From NCBI GenBank assembly GCA_963730845.1, contig CAVSTM010000003.1:30713-94712 (forward strand): DNA of 64,000 nucleotides, written 5' to 3'. Source of the stretch: an uncultured Acidobacteriaceae bacterium. GTDB taxonomy: Bacteria; Acidobacteriota; Terriglobia; Terriglobales; Acidobacteriaceae. Each line of letters begins with the position of its first letter. The stretch's first letter is position 1. The notes under the pieces were generated by a model that saw nothing but the letters and a program-made list of their open reading frames with translations, ran no database searches and was not told where the DNA came from. A program made the position numbers and the translations under genes. Below are positions 3,446-32,455 of the stretch, piece after piece.

Positions 3446-6388
3446 ATGAGTTATGTTCGGCACGCAATTAAGTCGCTTCGCACTGCCAGGGCACTTGTTC
3501 TCGCCCCGTTCTTCCTGGCTGTGGCCGGGACGGCGATCCCCGCCCATGCCCAGACTCCGCCCCCGGCAACCTTCGTGAACCCCACGCTGTTTAACGGAGG
3601 TTCTGTTATTTCCAATTACAGCCCGATTGCAGTACAAGTAGTTGCCCTTGGCGACTTCACCAATAACGGAATCCAAGACCTCCTCACGCTCGATGACAAC
3701 GGCAACACCGCCGGGGTGGGCATTCTGTTGGGCAACGGCGATGGCACCTTCGGGCCCGTCTCCTCTATTACCACGTTTGCGTGCACTTTAGAGGGCGGCA
3801 TCGTCACGGGTGACTTCAATAATGACGGTAAACTCGATTTCGCCGTCGTATCGGGTACGCCCGGGGGGGATTGCAACTTCAATCCGGGTACGCTCTGGAT
3901 TTATCTGGGCAACGGCGCGGGCGGCTTCACCCTCAAGGCCTCGTATTCAATGCTTGGGGTCCCTGCTAACAACGAGAAGGCTGGTGGATTGATCGCCGGC
4001 GATCTTCGGGGCAACGGGCATCTCGACCTGCTCGCGATCGATCCCACTAATGGCGTCGACGTTTTTCTTGGCAACGGCGATGGAACCTTCCAGGCTCCAG
4101 CGGCGGTCGCAATAACTTCTCCGGGTTATACGGGGGCAATCACGGCCAGGGACGTCAATAACGACGGAAAGCCCGATCTGATAGTCGCGAATCAATACGA
4201 AGGTGACGGTATTTTTGTGCTGCTCGGCAACGGCGACGGTACCTTCAAGTCTCCCGTGTTTTACCAGCAGGGTTCGAATTCGGGTGCCATGGCGCTAGCC
4301 ATCGGGCAGTTGATCGCGGACGACCACGGCGACGTGGTAATGGGCACGGGAAACGGAGCGTACGTCTACATCAACAATGGCGATGGCACGTTCAAGACCC
4401 CGGTTCTGTATGGTCCGTCGTGGATCAATTCCATTGTGATCACCGATATCAATGGCGATAAGAAGCAAGATCTTGTGGTTAGTTCTTATTCATCCTCCGC
4501 AGTATGGACTATGCTCGGCAACGGGAAAGGCGGTTTCACCGCGGGAGAGTCATTCGCCACGTCTGGCTATCCGAACAACGTCGTGGTCGCCGACTTCAAC
4601 GGCGACAAGAAACTCGACTTCGCTACGTCCAACAACGCCGGGCAGTGGATAACCGTGGGTCTCGGCAATGGCGACGGCACGTTCCGCAGCGGCCAGAGTT
4701 ACGGCTACAGCTGGAATGCTCCCATCAACGCCATCGCCACCGCCGACCTCAACGGCGACGGCAATCTGGACATCGTGGAAGGTGGAGGAGGTACGGGCGT
4801 TGGCATTACGGTGATGCTGGGGAGTTCGCACGGCGTGTTCGGGCCGGCCACTTCGATTGCGGTCGGCTGCGGCGAAGCGAATCGCAGCGGCGTCAACTCT
4901 ATCGCCTTGGGCGACGTCAATGGGGATCACAAGATCGACGTGGTGGCGACCAGCCTCGACGATCCCTACAACTGCTATGAAAACGTGATTGCGGTGCTGG
5001 AGGGCCTCGGCAATGGGAAATTCAAAACGCCTGTCTACTATTCCACCGGGACTACGCAGCAGTCCTACAGCGCTACGTTGGCCGATTTACGCGGCAAGGG
5101 GCTGCTGGACATTGTCGTCTCAAACGGCGATGGCAGCATCAGCGTGCTGCTCAACAACGGCAAAGGCGTCTACGGTACAGCCAACGTGATCACGGGTGCC
5201 AGCGGGTCGGCGGCCGCAGGCATCGTGATCGGCGACTTCAACAACGATGGCAAACTGGACATCACCCTCGACAACTACGGCGCGAATACAATTTACGTCC
5301 TGCTGGGAAACGGCGACGGCACGTTCCAGGCCCCGATCGTAACGCCCCTGGCGTCGATCTATCCGGCCGGGATGGCAGCCGGCGATTTTAACCACGACGG
5401 TAAGCTGGATCTGGCGGTCACCGGTGCGGGCTATTCAGGATCGCTTGTGATTTTGACCGGGAACGGCGACGGCACCTTCACAGTTGGCACGCCCTACGAG
5501 TTCAACATGTGGGAGCAATGCTATCCAAGCGGCGGATCCAATCCGTTTTGGATCGGAGCGGGCGATCTCAACCAGGATGGCAAGTTGGATCTAGCGATTG
5601 CTGTTACATACTCCGCCTGCGGCACAGAATATAGCGGACAAAACAATTGGGGAGCGGCGCTGGTCTACACCGGGAACGGCGACGGCACCTTCAATCAGGA
5701 CGACGGACCATGGCTCGGCGGCGTGGACAACTCCGGCATTGTGCTCGGAGACTTCAACCGCGATGGCATGCTCGACATGGCGGTAGCCGGCAATGCAGCG
5801 TGGACGACCCAGGAGTGGACAACCATCATGCTGAACAACACCCAGCCGGTGAGCGTCTCACCCCTCTCCATGACATACAAGTCACAGGCAGTGGAAACCA
5901 AGAGCGCCGCTCAAACTGTGCTTTTTACTAATGATGAAACGACATCGCTCGCGGTCAGCAAAGTGGCGCTTGGAGGAAAGGATCCAGGAGACTTCGGCTT
6001 CAAGTCCGCATGCCCGAGCCGCTTGCTGGCCGGCGCTTACTGCACCGTGACCGTTACCTTCGAACCCACAACCGCGGGCACGCGGACAGCGACGTTGTCC
6101 ATCACCGATGGCGAAGGCACGCAAAACGTCTCGTTGACGGGTACCGGCGAGGAGACCGTTACGAGCTTCACTCCGACGAGCGGGCCGGTTGGAACTCCGG
6201 TGACGATCACAGGAACCGCCTTTACGGGGACGACCAAGGTGACGTTCGATGGCACGGCTTCCAGCTTCACCGTAAACTCCGCCACCGAGATCACGGCGAC
6301 CGTGCCGACGGGAGCGAAGACCGGCAAGATCGGAGTCACCACTGACGGAGTGACCGTCGACAGCAAAACCAGCTTCACCGTGAACTAA
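3446..6388 (+). CDS. secreted FG-GAP/VCBS repeat protein with C-terminal Ig-like (ASH/choice-of-anchor-D-like and IPT/TIG) domains
   Basis: SD GGAGGA lies upstream. Signal peptide (LVLAPFFLAVAGTAIPAHA). More than 10 repeats of GDFNNDGKLD...LLGNGDGTF. C-terminus reads VTSFTPTSGPVGTPVTITGTAFTG (IPT/TIG-like). Confidence 0.8.
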   Translation: MSYVRHAIKSLRTARALVLAPFFLAVAGTAIPAHAQTPPPATFVNPTLFNGGSVISNYSPIAVQVVALGDFTNNGIQDLLTLDDNGNTAGVGILLGNGDGTFGPVSSITTFACTLEGGIVTGDFNNDGKLDFAVVSGTPGGDCNFNPGTLWIYLGNGAGGFTLKASYSMLGVPANNEKAGGLIAGDLRGNGHLDLLAIDPTNGVDVFLGNGDGTFQAPAAVAITSPGYTGAITARDVNNDGKPDLIVANQYEGDGIFVLLGNGDGTFKSPVFYQQGSNSGAMALAIGQLIADDHGDVVMGTGNGAYVYINNGDGTFKTPVLYGPSWINSIVITDINGDKKQDLVVSSYSSSAVWTMLGNGKGGFTAGESFATSGYPNNVVVADFNGDKKLDFATSNNAGQWITVGLGNGDGTFRSGQSYGYSWNAPINAIATADLNGDGNLDIVEGGGGTGVGITVMLGSSHGVFGPATSIAVGCGEANRSGVNSIALGDVNGDHKIDVVATSLDDPYNCYENVIAVLEGLGNGKFKTPVYYSTGTTQQSYSATLADLRGKGLLDIVVSNGDGSISVLLNNGKGVYGTANVITGASGSAAAGIVIGDFNNDGKLDITLDNYGANTIYVLLGNGDGTFQAPIVTPLASIYPAGMAAGDFNHDGKLDLAVTGAGYSGSLVILTGNGDGTFTVGTPYEFNMWEQCYPSGGSNPFWIGAGDLNQDGKLDLAIAVTYSACGTEYSGQNNWGAALVYTGNGDGTFNQDDGPWLGGVDNSGIVLGDFNRDGMLDMAVAGNAAWTTQEWTTIMLNNTQPVSVSPLSMTYKSQAVETKSAAQTVLFTNDETTSLAVSKVALGGKDPGDFGFKSACPSRLLAGAYCTVTVTFEPTTAGTRTATLSITDGEGTQNVSLTGTGEETVTSFTPTSGPVGTPVTITGTAFTGTTKVTFDGTASSFTVNSATEITATVPTGAKTGKIGVTTDGVTVDSKTSFTVN

Positions 6389-6766
6389 CTGAAAAAAACG
6401 GATGGGCCGGGGGCAACCGCTCCCGGCTCCGCCGGCTTATAGCACAGATGCTCGTATCGCGCAGCGACGCTCTGTTCAGATTTCGGTCCCGTCCTTAATT
6501 GCTTGCCGATTGCAGAAGTCCCGGCTCCGCCAGTTCTCGCCGCAGCATTCTCCGAATTCACCGAGGCCGGTCGCAGCGTGCTGGCTGACGGTGCGCCGCC
6601 CTCGCCTGCCTAAAGCAAGCGGGTCGAACTGCCGATGTACAACCCGTCAGTCAGAAATTACGGCCCGGTGCCGTGCTTAGTTTCGTTGCTCAATTTTCGC
6701 GGCCTGACCTTCGTGGCTTAACCGTGGGTTGCCGCAGAGCGGTGGGAACCTGGGTGGTGGGAACCT

Positions 6767-7321
6767 ATGGATAAGATCCGGGCGCTCATTATGGATGATT
6801 CCTCGGTGATGCGCAAAATCGTCGAGCGTTCGCTGCGTCGGGCGGCCATCGAGCTGGAAAGGGTTATAGAAGCGTCGAATGGAGCCGAAGCGCTGGCCGC
6901 TTTGCAGAGCAACGTGGCCGAGCTCGTCCTCTGCGACATCAACATGCCGGACTCGCAATGGACCTCTGCCTGGGGCATCAACAATTCCGGAGAGGTGACT
7001 GTGCAATGGGGCGACCAGAATGGATTCTTCTGGGCGTCCCTTTACAACGGGTCGACCTTCACGTCGCTCACCGCTCCCGGCGGTTATAACACGGGCGTTC
7101 ATTCCATCAACACGGCGGGGGACATCATGTTCGTGTGGGGAGATCCCTACGGAAACAATCACGCCGCGCTTCTGAACGCGGGCTCGTACTTCGTCTTCGA
7201 TATGCCGGCGAGCCTGGGCTCGGGCACCGACGCTGATGGCCTGAACGACTCAGGTGCGATCGTCGGCCACTTCACTCCCACCGGAACCTCGGTCTTCGGG
7301 GCGTACGAGGGAAAGCTCTAG
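6767..7321 (+). CDS. chimeric ORF: first ~61 aa of a CheY-like receiver domain fused to HAF-type (INNSG/INTAG/LNDSG) repeats
   Basis: MDKIRALIMDDSSVMRKIVE...LVLCDINMPD matches beta1 to beta3 of a receiver domain and then stops abruptly. The rest carries GINNSGEVTV, SINTAGDIMFV and LNDSGAIVGH repeats. Confidence 0.5.
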   Translation: MDKIRALIMDDSSVMRKIVERSLRRAAIELERVIEASNGAEALAALQSNVAELVLCDINMPDSQWTSAWGINNSGEVTVQWGDQNGFFWASLYNGSTFTSLTAPGGYNTGVHSINTAGDIMFVWGDPYGNNHAALLNAGSYFVFDMPASLGSGTDADGLNDSGAIVGHFTPTGTSVFGAYEGKL

Positions 7322-7502
7322 CTGATCAAATCCAGGGGAAACGGCCCCGCTTACGGCGATGTTTACCGCGAGCGGGTCCGAATCCCCTCTGCATTCTGGG
7401 CGGACAATGGAACACCAGCGTGTCAGCTGGGATCTTTGTGACGTAAACACTTCTAAATAGCACCGCCGAATCTTAGCCCCCGCCATGGTCGGGAAGTGTG
7501 GC

Positions 7503-7784
7503 CTACTCAGCCCCGCCGGCGATTGAAGGCACCAGCAGCACCTCATCGCCGTCCAGGAACGAATATGAAGCGCCCCCCAGGAAGCGAATATCCTCCTCAT
7601 TCACATAAACATTGAGAAATCGCCGCGTCTCGCCCGCTTCATCCCGCAAATGGGGCTTCAAGTCGGGGAACTGCTGGTCGAGCTCCGAGAACAGCTCACT
7701 GAGATTAGCCGCCGAGCAAACAACGCGCGGCGTCCCGGAAGTAAGTCGCCGCAAAGCTGAGGGAATTTGAACGGTAATACTCAT
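7503..7784 (-). CDS. MoaD/ThiS-family sulfur-carrier protein (MetO/CysO-like), C-terminus ...AGGAE
   Basis: Start moved to MSITVQIP (ATG 7784) behind an AGGAGG SD. 93 aa, beta-grasp-like sequence, with a diglycine 2 residues before the stop. Confidence 0.75.
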   Translation of the reverse strand: MSITVQIPSALRRLTSGTPRVVCSAANLSELFSELDQQFPDLKPHLRDEAGETRRFLNVYVNEEDIRFLGGASYSFLDGDEVLLVPSIAGGAE

Positions 7785-7820
7785 TAAGAACCTCCTAGCA
7801 AAAAACGGTGACGACGTGCT

Positions 7821-7846
7821 GTAGAGACGGGGCTTGCCCCGTCTCC
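7821..7846. repeat. family A hairpin repeat (single arm) GTAGAGACGGGGCTTGCCCCGTCTCC
   Basis: Self-complementary GAGACGGGGC/GCCCCGTCTC. The same motif occurs at 18456, 23482, 34130, 39415 and 55827. Confidence 0.85.
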
Positions 7847-7858
7847 ACACGAAAGCAA

Positions 7859-9139
7859 CTAGCGACCAACGACTGCTGTCTCGGCAACCGCCGCTGGCAG
7901 GTTTGCCGCCGTCGAAGCCAAATACGCCTCGAACTCGGCAAGCTTCGGAGCGATCGGAGTTTCCACTTGATACTTATCTGCCAGCACGTCGGTCGTCTTG
8001 AGTCCGTTGCCCGTAATGCAGAGCACGGTCGTTTCATCTGGCAGAATACGATCCTGTTGAATCAGCTTGCGCGCTGTCCCAACCGTCACGCCGCCCGCGG
8101 TCTCGGTGAAGATGCCTTCGCTCTCCGCCAGCAACTGGATGCCACCGACAACTTCGTGATCGGAAATGTCTTCCGCCCATCCTCCGCTTTTGGTGATGGC
8201 CTTCAACGCGTAATGTCCGTCGGCCGGATTGCCGATGGCCAGCGACCGCGCAATCGTCTTCGGACGCTGCGGCTCAATCTCGCTGCTGTACTGCTTGATC
8301 GCGGTCGAAATCGGCGAGCAGCCAGTCGCTTGCGCGCCAAAGAATTTCACTGGCTTCGGATCAACCAGTCCTAGCAGGATCAGCTCATCAAACGCCTTTT
8401 TGATCTTGGTAATCAAAGACCCGCCCGCCATTGGTACCACAACGTTGTCGGGCAAGCGCCAGCCCAGTTGCTCGGCGACTTCATAGCCCACCGTCTTCGA
8501 GCCTTCAGCGTAATAGGGACGAAGATTCACGTTCACGAATCCCCAACGGTGTTCATCGGCGATCTGCGAGCACAGGCGATTGACGTGATCGTAACTGCCG
8601 TTGATGCGCACCAGCTCCGCGCCAAACACTTGCGTGCCCAGAATCTTCGCGGGCTCAAGATCCGAAGGAATGAAAATCCACGCCTTCAAACCTTCGCGAG
8701 CCGCTTGCGCCGCGACCGAATTCGCGAGATTCCCCGTCGAAGAGCAAGCCACCGTGTCGAACCCAAAGCTGCGCGCATTCGCCAGGGCGACGGCGACCAC
8801 GCGGTCTTTGAAGCTCAAGGTGGGCAGGCACACCGCATCATTCTTGACGAAGAGCCGCCGCGATCCAATCTCGTTTCCGAGTCTTGGGGCGCCCACCAGC
8901 GGAGTGAATCCTACCGGTAGGGACGGCTGAAATCCCGCCGGCAGCGGCAGGAGTTCGCGATAGCGCCACATGTTGGGCGCGCGCGAGGCAAACAGTTCGC
9001 GCGAAAGGCGCGAGCGAAGCGAATCGTAGTCGTAGGTGATTTCGAGCGGCGAGAAACAGTCTTCGCAGATACTGCGTGGCTGGTTGCCCCAGGTCTTGCC
9101 GCATTCGCGGCAACGGAGCTGGTACGTGCTCGTCTCCAT
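7859..9139 (-). CDS. threonine synthase-family PLP enzyme with N-terminal zinc ribbon (MetM-like candidate)
   Basis: Start moved to METSTYQLRCRECGKTW (ATG 9139). Carries the PLP-lysine motif region (PTLSFKDR) and a ThrC/TrpB fold-type II pattern throughout. Confidence 0.85.
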   Translation of the reverse strand: METSTYQLRCRECGKTWGNQPRSICEDCFSPLEITYDYDSLRSRLSRELFASRAPNMWRYRELLPLPAGFQPSLPVGFTPLVGAPRLGNEIGSRRLFVKNDAVCLPTLSFKDRVVAVALANARSFGFDTVACSSTGNLANSVAAQAAREGLKAWIFIPSDLEPAKILGTQVFGAELVRINGSYDHVNRLCSQIADEHRWGFVNVNLRPYYAEGSKTVGYEVAEQLGWRLPDNVVVPMAGGSLITKIKKAFDELILLGLVDPKPVKFFGAQATGCSPISTAIKQYSSEIEPQRPKTIARSLAIGNPADGHYALKAITKSGGWAEDISDHEVVGGIQLLAESEGIFTETAGGVTVGTARKLIQQDRILPDETTVLCITGNGLKTTDVLADKYQVETPIAPKLAEFEAYLASTAANLPAAVAETAVVGR

Positions 9140-9258
9140 TTTGCAACTTCTTTCCGTGACTGCGGGACGAGCCGGGTAAAAACCCCAGTTAACACAAAAC
9201 CCCTTTTCCGAATGGGAAAAGAGGCTCGGGATACGCGAAAAAATCGCTATCACCCGAA

Positions 9259-9369
9259 TCTCATGGTCCCCGTTACCGGGCGAGAGTTGGCACCTGCGAT
9301 TGAGATAGATGATCTCTATCCGGTTGCCGTGGCGTCCTAGGGCTCGTCCCTCAGCCACTCTGCATGAAA
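9259..9369 (-). promoter_or_regulatory. SAM-I (S-box) riboswitch aptamer
   Basis: Minus strand reads UUUCAUG CAGAG UGGCUGAGGGAC GAGCCC UAGGA CGCCAC GGCAACC ... GGUGCCAACUCUCGCCCGGUAACGGGG ACCAUGAGA. P1 pairing, the GAGGGA strand, the GCAACC and GGUGCCAA junctions and a GUAA-capped P4 are all present. Confidence 0.8.
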
Positions 9370-9504
9370 TTCCGATTTGCTCAAAAAAGAGCAAACTTGG
9401 GATCAAATACTACAACCGACCGAGCGGTCTGTCAAGGCAGAATTTCAGGCAGCCGGCGTCGGACAGCGAATGTGCGCCTGTTGCGAATGAGCAGGTAAAT
9501 TGCA

Positions 9505-10656
9505 TCACTTCATCCCCAGCGCCCGCAGCACTCCTTCATCCGCCACTGTCTTCCCATCTTTCTTCGTGACCACGCCAAACGATCCCGAGTAGTCCCACAT
9601 CGCCCACCCGATCCCGTCGTGCTCGAGCGCCGTTCGCACATCATGTAGCCACAGCGCACGGTCCTCGGGGTCGGCATACTCCCGATACACGCCAAACTCG
9701 TTGCACACGAGCGGAACTCCGCGACGCCGCGCCCACTCCGCCGCCTGCTTCATTTCGGATTCGATGCGAGCAGCGTCCCAGTGATCGCGTCCATAACGGA
9801 TTACCTGCAACCGGTTCACTTCATCCGGCACTAGCTGCGCTACGCGTTCCGCCGACTCCGGACTGGACGGATATTTCAAGCCGCGCAGCCAGTGCCAGTA
9901 ATATGCGCTCCAAGTCGCGCCCTGATGGGTAAAGATGTGCGGCTCATAAAAATGAAAGTCGTATATGACATTCGGATCGTGCAGCGGTTCCTGAAAAACA
10001 AGGTCGCCGTCATCCGACCAGCGCGCGCCCGCCGCTATGATGGTGTGCCGCGGCGCGCCCTCACGGATCGCCGCCGCCAGCTTCACTTGCACGCCGAGCC
10101 ATCGATAGCGGTCGGCGAACTCCGGCTCATTCAGAATTTCCAGAAACACGCGGTCGGCATCCCACGTCGAGTAATGCGCGGCCAGCGCCCGCCAGAAATC
10201 GGCAAACCGCTCGACAAACTCGTCCTCCTTAGTCAGCCGCGCCTTGAAGTCGCTCTCCGGATGCAGGTCGATCACCACGGCCAGCCCGTGATCGAGAATC
10301 ATCTTGACCGCCGCATCCAGATAACCCAGATATTCCGCAGGAATCTTGTTGGGCTCGCGCTCGTTAAACATCGGCTGCGGATTTACGCTCAAGCGGACAT
10401 GATCGAAGCCCATCGACTTGATCAGGGCGATGTCTTCGGCCGTCGTCCACGCCTGGAAATGTTCCAGAGTATAGCCACGCTTGTCATAGACCTGCGCGAA
10501 CCACTCGCTGGCATTGATTCCGCGTTTCAATTTGTCCGCCCGCGCAAAGACCAGGGAGCCTTTTGCGGTCGCGACTCCGCCAGTCTGCGCCATCACACAA
10601 CCTGCCAGCAGCCCTGACAACAATAGAAAGGCGACGCGCAAGCTCACTCGGTCCAT
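9505..10656 (-). CDS. glycoside hydrolase family 5 (endoglucanase-like), secreted
   Basis: Start at MDRVSLRVAFLLLSGLLAGC (signal/lipobox-like). GH5 pattern with FDHVRL and the catalytic LEILNEPEF. Confidence 0.8.
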   Translation of the reverse strand: MDRVSLRVAFLLLSGLLAGCVMAQTGGVATAKGSLVFARADKLKRGINASEWFAQVYDKRGYTLEHFQAWTTAEDIALIKSMGFDHVRLSVNPQPMFNEREPNKIPAEYLGYLDAAVKMILDHGLAVVIDLHPESDFKARLTKEDEFVERFADFWRALAAHYSTWDADRVFLEILNEPEFADRYRWLGVQVKLAAAIREGAPRHTIIAAGARWSDDGDLVFQEPLHDPNVIYDFHFYEPHIFTHQGATWSAYYWHWLRGLKYPSSPESAERVAQLVPDEVNRLQVIRYGRDHWDAARIESEMKQAAEWARRRGVPLVCNEFGVYREYADPEDRALWLHDVRTALEHDGIGWAMWDYSGSFGVVTKKDGKTVADEGVLRALGMK

Positions 10657-10747
10657 CTTCAGTCGCCTCAAGTTCACTCCACCCATCGCGGCACTCCCCT
10701 ATCGATTGATACACTGATGGCCAAGTCCCAAGTCCAAAGACTAGCCC

Positions 10748-11908
10748 ATGCTTCCATGCCAGCGCCATCTTTTCGACATTCCCGACGACGTCGCCTACCT
10801 GAACTGTGCCTATATGTCTCCGCTGATGAAGCCGGCGCTGGAGGCTGGAACCGCGGGGCTCGCCCGCAAAGCGCATCCGTGGCAGATTACCGCCGATCAG
10901 TTCTTCACGGGCTCGGAAGAGTTTCGTACGGTCGCAGCTCGCCTTCTCGACGGTTCAGCCGCCTGCATCGCCATTGTTCCCTCGGCCAGTTACGGCATCG
11001 CAACCGCCGCGCGCAATGTGCCGATCAAGAAAGGCGAGAGCATTCTCGTGCTCGAAGAGCAGTTCCCGTCCAACTACTATCCGTGGCAACGTCGGCCGAC
11101 GGAAACGGCGCATCTCTGAAGATCGTTCCGTGGCCTGGTGATGAGGATAACGACTGGACGGCTGCTGTTCTGAACGCCCTTACCGCCGACGTGGCTATTG
11201 CCGCGCTCCCGCACGTGCAGTGGACCAGCGGCGGAAGACTGGACCTCGTCCGCATCGGCGAAGCTTGCCGCAAGCTCGGCACCGCGCTCGTTCTCGATCT
11301 CACGCAGTCGCTCGGCGCGCTGCCCTTCAGCGTGCGCGACGTGCAGCCGGATTTCGCCGTCGCTGCCAGCTACAAGTGGCTGCTCGGTCCTTATTCCGTC
11401 GGGCTTCTCTATGTCGCGCCAAAATGGCAGGGCGGAATACCGCTGGAAGAGAATTGGATTCAGCGCGCCAACGCTCGCGATTTCGTCGAATCTCCTGCTG
11501 TATACCGAAAATTACGACGCCGGCGCGCGGCGCTTCGATATGGGCGAGCGCTCGAACTTCGCTCTGTTGCCCGCCGCCGTGCGCGCCATGAAGCAGTTGC
11601 TGGAGTGGAAAGTCGCGCAGGTCTCGGAAACGGTGGGCGCGCTCAATCGTCAACTGGCGAACGCCGCAGCGAGCTTGGGATTCTTCGCTCCCGCCGAGCC
11701 GCTGCGCGCGCCTCATTACCTGGCGCTACGGAGAAAAGAGGCGATTCCGAAGGAACTTCCCGAAATGCTGGCGCGAGAGAAAGTGTTCATCAGCGTCCGC
11801 GGAAGTTCAATTCGAGTGACGCCGCACGTTTACAACACGGCTGAGGATGGAGAGCGGCTTATCGCTGCCTGCGCCGCGTCGCTGCACTGCGAGGACACTT
11901 TGCCCTGA
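10748..11908 (+). pseudogene. class V-fold PLP-dependent aminotransferase/desulfurase-like gene with two apparent frameshifts
   Basis: One protein continues across three frames: ...SNYYPWQR | ADGNGASLKIVPWPG...ASYKWLLGPYSVGLLYV...WIQRANARDF | NLLLYTENYDAGARRFDMGE...RVTPHVYN. Breaks lie near 11093 and 11487. Confidence 0.7.
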
Positions 11909-15986: not shown

Positions 15987-17185
15987 ATGCTCAAGAAGAA
16001 CAGGCTCTTCACTCCCGGACCAACGCCGCTGCTGCCGCAAGCCCAGATGGCGATGGCTTCCTATGGCGCGCACCATCGCACGGCCGAGTTCCGCTCGCTG
16101 TTCACGCGTGTTCTGGCCGACGTCAAGGAGTTCATCGGCACCAACAATGACGTGCTCGTGCTGACCTCGTCAGGCACGGGCTTCATGGAAGCCTCGGTCT
16201 CGAACCTGACTTCTCCGGGCGACCGAGTGCTGGTGTTGACCGCCGGCAAGTTCGGCGAGCGCTGGACCGCGCTGGCCAAGGCGTTTGGTTGCGCCGTGGA
16301 GACGGTAACCGCTCCCTATGGCGAAACGTTTTCGATTGAGGAAGTGCGCCGCAAACTGACGCCCGAGATTCGCTGCGTTTATGTGCAGGCGACCGAGAGT
16401 TCCACGGGCGCGCGGCATGACGTTGAGGCGATCGCAAAACTGGTGCGAACTTCGTATATCCGGACACCTTATTGATCGTCGACGCGATCACTGGGCTGGG
16501 CACGACCCATCTCGACGTGGACGGTTGGGGAATCGACATCATCATTGGTGGCTCGCAGAAGGCGCTGATGATCCCGCCCGGACTGGCCTATGGCGCCATC
16601 AGCGAGCGGGCGTGGCAGCGCATGGAGACGACGAAGTCTCCGCGGTATTACTTCGATCTGCGGAAGGAACGAAAAGCGGCGGCCAAGGCGGAGACGACAA
16701 GCACGCCCGCGACCTCTCTGTTTGCCGGAATGGCCGCAGCGCTCGATTATGTGCGTCAAATGGGAGACGGGAACCTCGCGGAGGGGCGAGACGCGCTGAT
16801 CGCGAACGCGGAGTTGTGCGCGGCCATGACACGCGCCGGCGTCGAAGCGCTGAGGCTGAAGTTGTTCGCGTCGAGTTCTCCGGCGGCCGCTCTGACGGCC
16901 GTCGCTGCGCCGGCCGGCATCGATTCCACGACCATTTGCAAACGCTTCCGCGAGCAGTTTGGCGCGGTCGTGGCCAACGGAAATGCGGAGTTGAAAGGAC
17001 AGCTTTTCCGCATCGCTCACATCGGCTACTACGATTATCTGGACACGGTGGGAGTGCTGGCCGCACTCGAACATGTGATCGCCGAAACCACGGGGAATGC
17101 GGTCGAGTACGGATGCGCGGTGAGGGCGGCGCAGGAAGTTTATGCGAAGGCGAAGACTGCAGATCCCTCGCTGCGCTCGGGATGA
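15987..17185 (+). pseudogene. class V aminotransferase (serine-pyruvate/alanine-glyoxylate type) with one apparent frameshift
   Basis: ORF 15987..16475 (LFTPGPTP..., ...EAIAKLVRTS) continues in ORF 16472..17185 as ...YPDTLLIVDAITGLG...GGSQKAL. The break is at ~16455..16462 in a TATAT run. Confidence 0.8.
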
Positions 17186-30903: not shown

Positions 30904-32455
30904 CTAATGCCGGAAATGCCGCACCCCGGTAAAGATCATGGCCAATCCGAGACGGTCGGCGGCTTCGATCACCTCCTGGTCGCGCACCGAGCCCCCGGGC
31001 TGAATGATGGCGGTGGCACCTGTTTTGGCGATTTCCTCGACGCCATCCGGGAAGGGGAAGAAGGCGTCCGAGGCGGCCACCGTGCCTTTCAGCGGCAACT
31101 GTGCCTTCATGGCGCCCAGCCTGCAGGAATCGACGCGGCTCATTTGCCCGGCACCGACCCCCACCGTTTGGCCGTCGCGGGCGTAGAGAATGGCGTTCGA
31201 CTTTACGTGCTTGCATACCTTCCACGCGAAGAGCAGCGCCCGTTTTTCTTCCGGCGTCGGCGGGCGCTTGGTCACAACCTTCAGATCGGCTTCGGTCAGC
31301 TGGTGGAGATCGGAATCCTGTACGAGCATGCCTCCAGAAATATTTTTCAGGACCCAGTTCTGCTGCCCCGCAGGAACCTCGACCAGCCGCAGATTCTTCT
31401 TTGCGGCAAACGCCGCTTTCGCGCCTTCGTCGAATGCGGGAGCGGCGATGACTTCGAGGAAGAGCTTGGCCATTTCGCTCGCGGCCGCGGCATCGACTGC
31501 GCGGTTCACTCCGATCACTCCACCAAATGCCGACACGGCATCGCATTCGAGCGCCCGCATATAAGCCTCGGCGAGCGTCTTCGCCGGTTGCGGTTCCGCA
31601 GGGATTTGTGTGTTTGATAATGGCGCAGACCGGCTCGTTAAATTCCTGCGCCAGATCCCAGGCGGCTTGCAGGTCGACAATGTTGTTATAGGAAAGCTCT
31701 TTGCCTTGTACCTGGCGCGCGTTCGCGACGCCCACGCCTGTGGCGTCCGCGTACATGGCGGCCTTCTGGTGAGGATTCTCTCCATAGCGCAGGTCGGCTA
31801 CCTTTTGAAACGCCAGTCGCAGATTTTTGGGAAAGCCTTGAGCGGAATGCATCTCGAAGTCGGAGCCCACTCGCTCCAGCGTCGAGGCGATGGCCGAGTC
31901 GTACGCTGCGGTCGTAGCAAACGCCTTCTGCGCCAGCCGCCACTTCGTCTCGCGAGACAACGCGCCGCCCGAGTAGCCCATCTCTTCGGCGATCGCGTCG
32001 TAATCGGCAGGCGAAGTCACGACTGCGACATCCTGAAAATTCTTCGCTGCTGAACGAATCATTGAAGGGCCGCCGATGTCGATGTTTTCAACCAGTTCGT
32101 TGAAATGCGCGCCCGGCTTGGCAGCCGTTTTTTCAAAGGCATACAGGTTGACGACCACCATGTCGATGGCCGCAATGCCATGCTCGGCGACCGCCGCGCG
32201 ATGGCTGCTATCTTCACGGCGATAGAGAATGCCTCCGTGAACCTTGGGATGTAGCGTCTTGACGCGCCCGTCCAGCATTTCAGGGAACCCGGTCAGTTCC
32301 GAAATGTCTTTGACGGGGATGCCGGACTCCCGCAACTGCTTGGCCGTGCCTCCGGTCGAAACCAGCTCCACGCCGAAAGCGACGAGTTTGTGGGCGAAAT
32401 CTACCAGTCCGGATTTGTCGGTAACGCTGAGAATGGCGCGCTGGATTTTAGACAT
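30904..32455 (-). pseudogene. purH: bifunctional AICAR transformylase/IMP cyclohydrolase PurH with one apparent frameshift
   Basis: MSKIQRAILSVTDKSGLVDFA...[11 protein letters not shown] | (K/E)[25 protein letters not shown]...FTGVRHFRH*. The break is at ~31580..31586. The Arg-rich tail of the 522-aa ORF is out-of-frame read-through. Confidence 0.85.

Follow-up and report, generated by a model that had tools for sequence, protein, structure and literature searches.

The closest described counterpart of the locus analysed here is the MetM/MetO system of Streptomyces albulus, in which MetM, a homologue of threonine synthase (ThrC), and the small sulfur carrier MetO convert O-phosphohomoserine into homocysteine, the MetO thiocarboxylate being made with MoeZ and matured with Mec, as stated in the accessible part of that report (Hasebe et al. 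2024, Appl Environ Microbiol 90:e01247-24, PMC11497804). The steps MetM, MetO, MoeZ and Mec are included in GapMind 2026, the available text of which adds that MetM is often misannotated as threonine synthase. A study on Microcystis, in the sections accessible to us, places an S-adenosylmethionine (SAM) riboswitch upstream of S. albulus metM and describes homologues in cyanobacteria; the Microcystis homologue is 51.6% identical to S. albulus MetM and has a metO-like neighbour. A preprint gives an identity of 33% between Bacillus subtilis ThrC and S. albulus MetM. We analysed a 64,000-nt stretch of contig CAVSTM010000003.1 from an uncultured Acidobacteriaceae bacterium (hereafter named the window), in which the region 7503–9435 on the minus strand is most likely a two-gene metM-metO operon of a soil acidobacterium of the class Terriglobia. 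The operon is an additional case of MetM/MetO, a system established in Streptomyces in 2024, and from its sequence relationships and gene context we consider it probable that the module performs SAM-repressed homocysteine synthesis from O-phosphohomoserine via a carrier thiocarboxylate. The window locus and that of S. albulus have in common a ThrC-homologous pyridoxal phosphate (PLP) enzyme annotated as threonine synthase, an adjoining ThiS/MoaD carrier and an upstream SAM riboswitch, whereas the hosts belong to different phyla, Actinomycetota there and Acidobacteriota here.

A preliminary description of this DNA had placed an S-box aptamer at 9369–9259 on the minus strand, about 120 nt before a 426-amino-acid gene of the threonine synthase family with an N-terminal CxxC...CxxC ribbon, followed 74 nt downstream by a 93-amino-acid MoaD/ThiS gene with its own AGGAGG sequence. 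This layout was borne out, with small corrections. The SAM-I (S-box) family RF00162 matches 9258–9370 (minus strand) with 70.2 bits and E=2.4e-14 against a gathering score of 44.4, so that the earlier coordinates were one base off at each end, and the measured spacer to the ATG is 118 nt. The match spans model positions 1–108 of 108, includes helices P1–P4 and is the only Rfam match above threshold within the window, as analysed using cmscan. Aptamers homologous to it were found at the equivalent place in 47 related loci, and in the alignment of 48 such same-context aptamers six of the 14 predicted pairs of P2 and P3 change on both sides with the pairing kept. The element is a genuine SAM-I aptamer. 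A candidate promoter of the sigma-70 type (TTGACA, 17-nt spacer, TAGTAT; 9407–9435, minus strand; ten of 12 matches in a consensus scan) lies 37 nt upstream of the aptamer. It is the sole such site in 7300–9600, and since 0.8 such sites are expected there by chance, the evidence for a promoter is weak.

The metM-like gene runs on the minus strand from the ATG at 9139 to the stop codon at 7859–7861 (7859–9139) and encodes the 426-residue ThrC-family PLP enzyme, a predicted O-phosphohomoserine-dependent homocysteine synthase by its clade membership. It matched Pfam PALP with 1.1e-63 and the thrC equivalog TIGR00260 with 268.3 bits (cut-off 167.1). The four other members of its clade that were scanned were also accepted by TIGR00260, so the model does not discriminate MetM from ThrC; none of the five clade proteins that were scanned gave a MetM-specific NCBIfam match. 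The ribbon, C10-x2-C13...C25-x2-C28 (codons at 9056–9112, minus strand), is well kept in the family, with C10, C25 and C28 invariant and C13 at least 90% conserved. We considered the ribbon as a hallmark of MetM and rejected it, as the canonical ThrC of a Terriglobia metagenome-assembled genome (MAG; locus L015) carries one too. The AlphaFold model of the enzyme (mean predicted local distance difference test score, pLDDT, 90.3) gave ThrC structures as top matches in the PDB, with target-normalised TM-scores of 0.84–0.86. Solved ThrC proteins match it over the catalytic domain only, at ~31–34% identity, and no PDB structure was found that is closer to the enzyme than canonical ThrC. With canonical ThrC (TIGR00260; 1UIM, 2ZSJ, 6CGQ and 2D1F) the enzyme shares the fold and the PLP lysine motif SFKDR (K111, codon 8807–8809, minus strand), and the substrate would be expected to be the same, but its gene is found together with a sulfur carrier gene and a SAM riboswitch, not with hom, thrB or ask.

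The nearest homologues of the enzyme, 87–95% identical, were encoded in soil metagenomes and in MAGs carrying the labels Terriglobales, Acidobacteriaceae or Acidobacteria, and all were named 'threonine synthase' in the database records seen; an exact-sequence look-up of the window enzyme returned no record. The gene calls of the database homologues P0001–P0120 (435–499 amino acids) run through the riboswitch and the leader, whereas the conserved protein starts at ATG 9139. These calls are too long, since the reading frame continues upstream without a stop as far as TTG 9406.

To place the enzyme, 79 clade proteins were aligned with 12 canonical ThrC proteins: the crystallised enzymes of B. subtilis, Thermus thermophilus and A. 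aeolicus, the ThrC of a Terriglobia thrB-ask-thrC operon with five homologues, and three Nitrospirota proteins. The clade members are at least 48.7% identical to one another and 28–41% identical to canonical ThrC, and all 200 resamplings using UPGMA (unweighted pair group method with arithmetic mean) recovered the clade as monophyletic. The window enzyme is 34.5% identical to B. subtilis ThrC, close to the 33% given for MetM in the preprint, and about 53% (52.7–53.7%) identical to its homologue from the actinobacterium Nonomuraea gerenzanensis. A plasmid collection searched with the window and Nonomuraea proteins for Streptomyces MetM gave only Nonomuraea above 50%. At 25 alignment positions the clade and canonical ThrC are fixed differently; in T. 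thermophilus numbering these include Thr88 replaced by Leu, Ser155 by Asn, Asn157 by Arg, Arg160 by Tyr, Ala240 by Ser and Trp249 by Gly. The residues of the window enzyme aligned with Thermus T88, S155 and R160 are Leu138, Asn205 and Tyr210, so the canonical residues are absent at these positions.

The metO-like gene (7503–7784, minus strand) begins 74 nt past the enzyme stop codon, with an AGGAGG Shine–Dalgarno sequence (7791–7796) 6 nt before its ATG. It encodes the 93-residue sulfur carrier of the ThiS/MoaD fold (Pfam ThiS, 1.7e-11), the closest solved relatives of which are CysO of Mycobacterium tuberculosis (3dwg_C, 1.7e-17) and CysO of Amycolatopsis (9.5e-16). The protein ends in SIAGG-AE, that is, Gly90-Gly91 (7512–7517, minus strand) followed by a two-residue tail of Ala-Glu (7506–7511, minus strand), unlike the Nonomuraea carrier, which ends in GG. 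The residues after GG in the lineage of the window are few and variable in sequence (AE, LR, SR, AS, RR, AW, AA and TA), as is expected of a pro-peptide that is removed, and 33 of 73 carriers end directly in GG. Between the two genes a GC-rich hairpin of 10 bp, GGAGACGGGG-CAAG-CCCCGUCUCU (7823–7846, minus strand), was read from the sequence, which may be an element of mRNA processing or stability. Other forms of the carrier were also seen. In six species of Acidobacteriaceae/Terriglobus MAGs (L026, L028, L029, L034, L036 and L037) the Gly-Gly is followed by a Cys-rich extension of 16–34 residues with the conserved pattern ...CCSYCGQEEC.CG(D). Two Desulfobacterota loci (L063, 11257–11772; L073, 11270–11785) encode a carrier that continues into a C-terminal NIL domain (Pfam NIL, 9e-14), and in an Actinomycetota MAG (L056, 11223 onward) the fusion partner of the carrier is a ThiF-like E1 domain, judged by sequence similarity to neighbouring E1s.

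We then compared the genomic context of relatives. A scan with the family alignment, taking one genome per GTDB species, confirmed at least 599 relatives, from which 80 loci with enzymes of 54–95% identity were sampled; they belong to Acidobacteriota, Methylomirabilota, Nitrospinota, Nitrospirota, Planctomycetota, Verrucomicrobiota, Chloroflexota, Cyanobacteria, Actinomycetota, Desulfobacterota and others. In 70 of the 80, the enzyme gene is followed immediately by a gene for a CysO-like carrier. Seven aptamers served to build a covariance model, which was run over the 1.5 Mb of these loci and found a SAM-I aptamer upstream of the enzyme gene in 45 of them, and likewise in the window, in a metagenomic relative with 93% identity and in Nonomuraea. 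Every match lay on the strand of the gene and within ~370 nt upstream of it, with none elsewhere in the 1.5 Mb, and spot checks using Rfam concurred, including the absence of SAM-I from one cyanobacterial and nine acidobacterial loci. Those nine acidobacterial loci showed no SAM riboswitch of another class either. Clustering of neighbouring open reading frames (ORFs) showed nine loci in which an E1 of the ThiF or ThiF-rhodanese type adjoins the carrier gene and three with a Prok-JAB protease; one representative of each was confirmed by Pfam. The flanks of the gene pair are entirely different in the window and in the 93%-identical relative, so these three elements, the riboswitch and the two genes, move together as a unit. 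Taken together, the locus shows the features of MetM/MetO that were looked for, namely a clade apart from ThrC, an adjoining CysO-like carrier and a SAM riboswitch, and the reading of the preliminary description, a SAM-repressed, thiocarboxylate-dependent homocysteine synthase of the MetM/MetO type, agrees with the clade, with both linkages, with the E1 and protease genes seen at some loci and with the separate canonical thrC of relatives, and probably holds.

Several relatives encode a canonical ThrC in addition. In three Nitrospirota loci a canonical thrC directly follows metM-metO, so that the paralogues are clustered (L054, 2025–3017; L055, 11856–12845; L070, 2267–3253); these proteins are short, lack the Cys ribbon and are 32–35% identical to the window enzyme. 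In the Terriglobia MAG locus L015 (11782–20002), metM-metO adjoins siroheme and sulfite-reductase genes and a thrB-aspartokinase-thrC operon, the latter within 10 kb of the pair, and an aspartokinase gene is nearby in nine loci. Across Terriglobia, canonical ThrC like that of L015 is widespread, and Ca. Angelobacter has both families, a statement at the genus level that need not refer to one assembly. The complete chromosome of N. gerenzanensis carries the same trio of riboswitch, ribbon-bearing ThrC-like gene and carrier, and ~2.5 Mb away around the circle it encodes a second protein that is a canonical ThrC, with 60.5% identity to the Thermus enzyme. Within the window itself tblastn with an aspartokinase and a canonical Terriglobia ThrC as queries revealed neither gene, the enzyme itself aside.

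By homology with the Streptomyces system, the substrate, product and helper enzymes of the operon would be as follows. MetO would be trimmed to expose its C-terminal Gly-Gly, for which Ala-Glu must go from the window carrier, and a ThiF-rhodanese enzyme of the MoeZ type, encoded elsewhere, would adenylate it and convert it into the thiocarboxylate. MetM, as a diverged PLP-dependent ThrC homologue, would eliminate the phosphate of O-phosphohomoserine and put the thiocarboxylate sulfur on C-gamma, and the adduct would be resolved with a JAMM/Mec-type hydrolase to give free homocysteine and regenerated MetO. The homocysteine would feed the synthesis of methionine and SAM, and SAM would shut the operon off. 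The carrier is of the same type as in the CysO/CysM/Mec/MoeZ system of M. tuberculosis and the HcyS/MetY system of Wolinella, and related loci carry the ThiF-rhodanese E1 and the JAMM protease. The partner enzyme is different in both cases: Wolinella MetY is a fold-I enzyme, which the window enzyme is not, and compared with sulfhydrylases of the CysK/CysM type the window enzyme is of the ThrC family, with 35.6 bits against a threshold of 387 for the cysteine synthase A model and best matches that are all ThrC.

The leader between the aptamer and the start codon was folded with and without the aptamer enforced. In the unconstrained minimum-energy fold, a conserved strand, GGCUCGUCCCGCAGUCAC (9156–9173, minus strand; conserved in at least 17 acidobacterial leaders), pairs with the 5' side of aptamer P2, GUGGCUGAGGGACGAGCC (9341–9358, minus strand), and the weak Shine–Dalgarno-like sequence GGAAAGAAG (9147–9155) and the AUG (9137–9139) are open. 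With the aptamer enforced, the same strand pairs with the AUG and the adjoining GAGACGAGC (9128–9136), which is complementary to it, and the AUG and first codons of the initiation region (9128–9155, minus strand) are sequestered. Both alternative states recur in relatives with leaders of other lengths, and in one subgroup the switch strand pairs instead with sequence just upstream of the AUG. These pairings suggest a switch in which, without SAM, the strand at 9156–9173 would hold the P2 side and leave the start codon exposed, whereas SAM would lock the aptamer and release the strand to pair with the AUG and GAGACGAGC, blocking translation initiation.

Comparison of relatives was consistent with the P2-switch helix. 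In close relatives the energies of the duplex between the P2 strand and the leader gave z-scores of −3.4 to −7.2 against shuffled leaders. Among 12 distinct relatives 93% of the cells of the helix were paired compared with 35–45% in shifted registers, and seven pairs shift from G-C to G-U or from U-A to U-G. A subgroup with ACGGGC in the aptamer has GCCCGU downstream in place of GCUCGU. In classical S-box leaders the 3' strand of P1 competes with a terminator. The window leader has the aptamer architecture and conserved core of Bacillota S-box leaders and would likewise be off when SAM is bound, but its competitor is predicted by folding to act on the 5' side of P2 and its output is apparently translational. 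It also differs from Nonomuraea, where the start codon is 13 nt past the aptamer, in having a long leader with a P2-aimed strand. The leader is possibly a useful example of a SAM-I expression platform aimed at P2.

Two hairpins precede the switch strand and are present in both folding states. Hairpin 1 (9226–9257, minus strand) directly follows P1 and is retained in relatives despite altered sequence. Hairpin 2, CCUCUUUUCC...GGAAAAGGGG with a U-rich run (9191–9225, minus strand; stem-loop 9199–9225, the U run extending to 9191), is terminator-like, and we considered it as a regulated terminator. This was dropped, as the hairpin forms in both states, folding of the two states yielded no antiterminator partner for it and its U run is broken in relatives; nor was it called in a scan for terminators. 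Possible roles are those of a constitutive attenuator, a pause site or a spacer.

Several points weigh against reading the operon as a SAM-repressed MetM/MetO module. There is no SAM-I aptamer at 35 of the 80 loci. As the preliminary description had noted, no E1 or JAMM gene was found in the 64-kb window: tblastn with four ThiF-type E1s and three JAMM proteins gave nothing better than E=0.01, as did the aspartokinase and ThrC queries with the enzyme itself excepted, and Pfam scans of 33 other window ORFs or ORF fragments gave no ThiF or JAB domain. The proposed orthology with S. albulus MetM is argued through an actinobacterial and a cyanobacterial bridge. In the Thermus enzyme Thr88, Ser155 and Arg160 bind the phosphate group that directs the addition of water, and their replacement is a lead rather than a result. 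As to the switch, the terminator-like hairpin that forms in both states is unaccounted for by the model, the downstream switch segments were picked by complementarity, and the close group shows no two-sided covariation of the P2-switch helix because its aptamer strand is invariant. For the same reason the shuffle control of the pair-counting test was uninformative, and when bases complementary to the P2 strand were counted without gaps (G-U allowed), real and shuffled leaders could not be told apart. Finally, the Microcystis study reports that its 'ThrC', a member of this clade, had threonine synthase and deaminase activity in vitro and caused no rise of methionine in vivo, so the clade may not consist purely of homocysteine synthases.

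That last observation leads to the alternative that the enzyme is a real or bifunctional threonine synthase/deaminase. SAM would then set the balance between the two routes, to threonine and to methionine, that part at O-phosphohomoserine, and the carrier would be functionally unrelated or accessory. This alternative would fit the in vitro activities reported for Microcystis, as well as the TIGR00260 score (268 bits against 167) and the match of the fold to ThrC structures (target-normalised TM-score 0.84–0.86). However, the clade stands apart from all proven ThrC, with the Thermus T88, S155, N157 and R160 positions replaced, and relatives keep a separate canonical ThrC, either in a thrB-ask-thrC operon or next to metO. 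A carrier linked to the enzyme in 70 of 80 genomes, with an E1 or JAMM protein in some, also has no role in threonine synthesis. SAM-I riboswitches are not known to control dedicated threonine genes. We therefore regard this alternative as unlikely.

Could the product of the pair instead be cysteine or a different thiol amino acid, formed from O-phosphoserine with the carrier thiocarboxylate, with a ThrC-fold enzyme replacing CysM in the logic of CysO/CysM? The closest solved relative of the carrier is M. tuberculosis CysO (1.7e-17), sulfite reductase genes adjoin the locus in one relative (L015), and a ThrC-family enzyme that uses O-phosphoserine is known in cysteate synthase (TIGR03844), although the match of the window enzyme to that model is weak (45 bits against 325). 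Yet cysteine synthase models score far below their thresholds, SAM control best fits a product of the methionine branch, the genes nearby in other genomes (aspartokinase, thrB and thrC) are those of the aspartate/homoserine pathway, and the characterised clade member takes O-phosphohomoserine; we hold cysteine synthesis to be quite improbable. That the pair delivers sulfur to a specialised metabolite or a cofactor, and not to primary methionine synthesis, is a very remote prospect. CysO-type ThiS/MoaD carriers have been borrowed by secondary-metabolite pathways, and the second-best solved carrier relative, 4n6e_B, presumably comes from a secondary-metabolite complex, but no biosynthetic-cluster genes surround the pair in the window or its relatives, where it forms a self-contained module, and more than ten phyla have kept it with SAM control. 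Thus homocysteine synthesis by MetM and MetO under SAM repression is the reading we prefer.

The preliminary description had also presented the module as new to this type of genome. The host phylum is new, but the novelty was otherwise overrated, as S. albulus metM already has a SAM riboswitch, homologues in other phyla had been noted and the pathway is modelled in GapMind 2026. The points that are new here are minor: the predicted P2-directed translational switch, the two-residue tail of the carrier, and the lack, among the matches of the five clade members scanned, of an NCBIfam model that splits MetM from ThrC. The picture of the pathway itself is unchanged from that set out in Streptomyces in 2024. 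What does follow concerns annotation. Because all clade members tested pass the thrC model and the homologues are named 'threonine synthase', metabolic models will miscount threonine synthases in Acidobacteriota, Planctomycetota, Nitrospirota, Cyanobacteria and other phyla, and a false gap in methionine synthesis is possible. A family with a breadth of at least 599 species genomes is hidden under that name, and the 25 discriminating positions together with the linkage to carrier and riboswitch provide a simple rule for telling MetM from ThrC. More speculatively, and with rather more doubt than conviction, we suggest that SAM-I riboswitches of Terriglobia may act through translation alone, by a non-classical platform whose conserved downstream strand enters the 5' side of P2 and does not compete for P1, and that MetM/MetO with a pro-protein carrier of short and variable tail may be the main or only homocysteine route in many uncultured soil and aquatic phyla, hidden as 'threonine synthase'.

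Elsewhere in the window, a gene-like stretch at 10748–11908 (plus strand) extends over three frames (10748–11119; a middle part in the frame of ORF 10717–11844, with 'SYKWLLGP'; and 11198–11908) and looks like a frameshifted class-V (PLP) aminotransferase-like gene, the two outer fragments of which had no Pfam match. Three further broken genes were seen, at 15987–17185 (plus strand), 6767–7321 (plus strand) and 30904–31785 (minus strand): an Aminotran_5 gene split into two ORFs, a response-regulator receiver cut at half length and fused to unrelated sequence, and AICARFT/IMPCHase with its C-terminal half only. Several disrupted genes within 64 kb suggest assembly indels or pseudogenes. In the sampled relatives, the flanks of L030 contain a lysine riboswitch and an Acido-Lenti-1 RNA (4864–5052, minus strand; 16954–16999, plus strand), and the flank of L033 contains a group II intron (6503–6730, minus strand).

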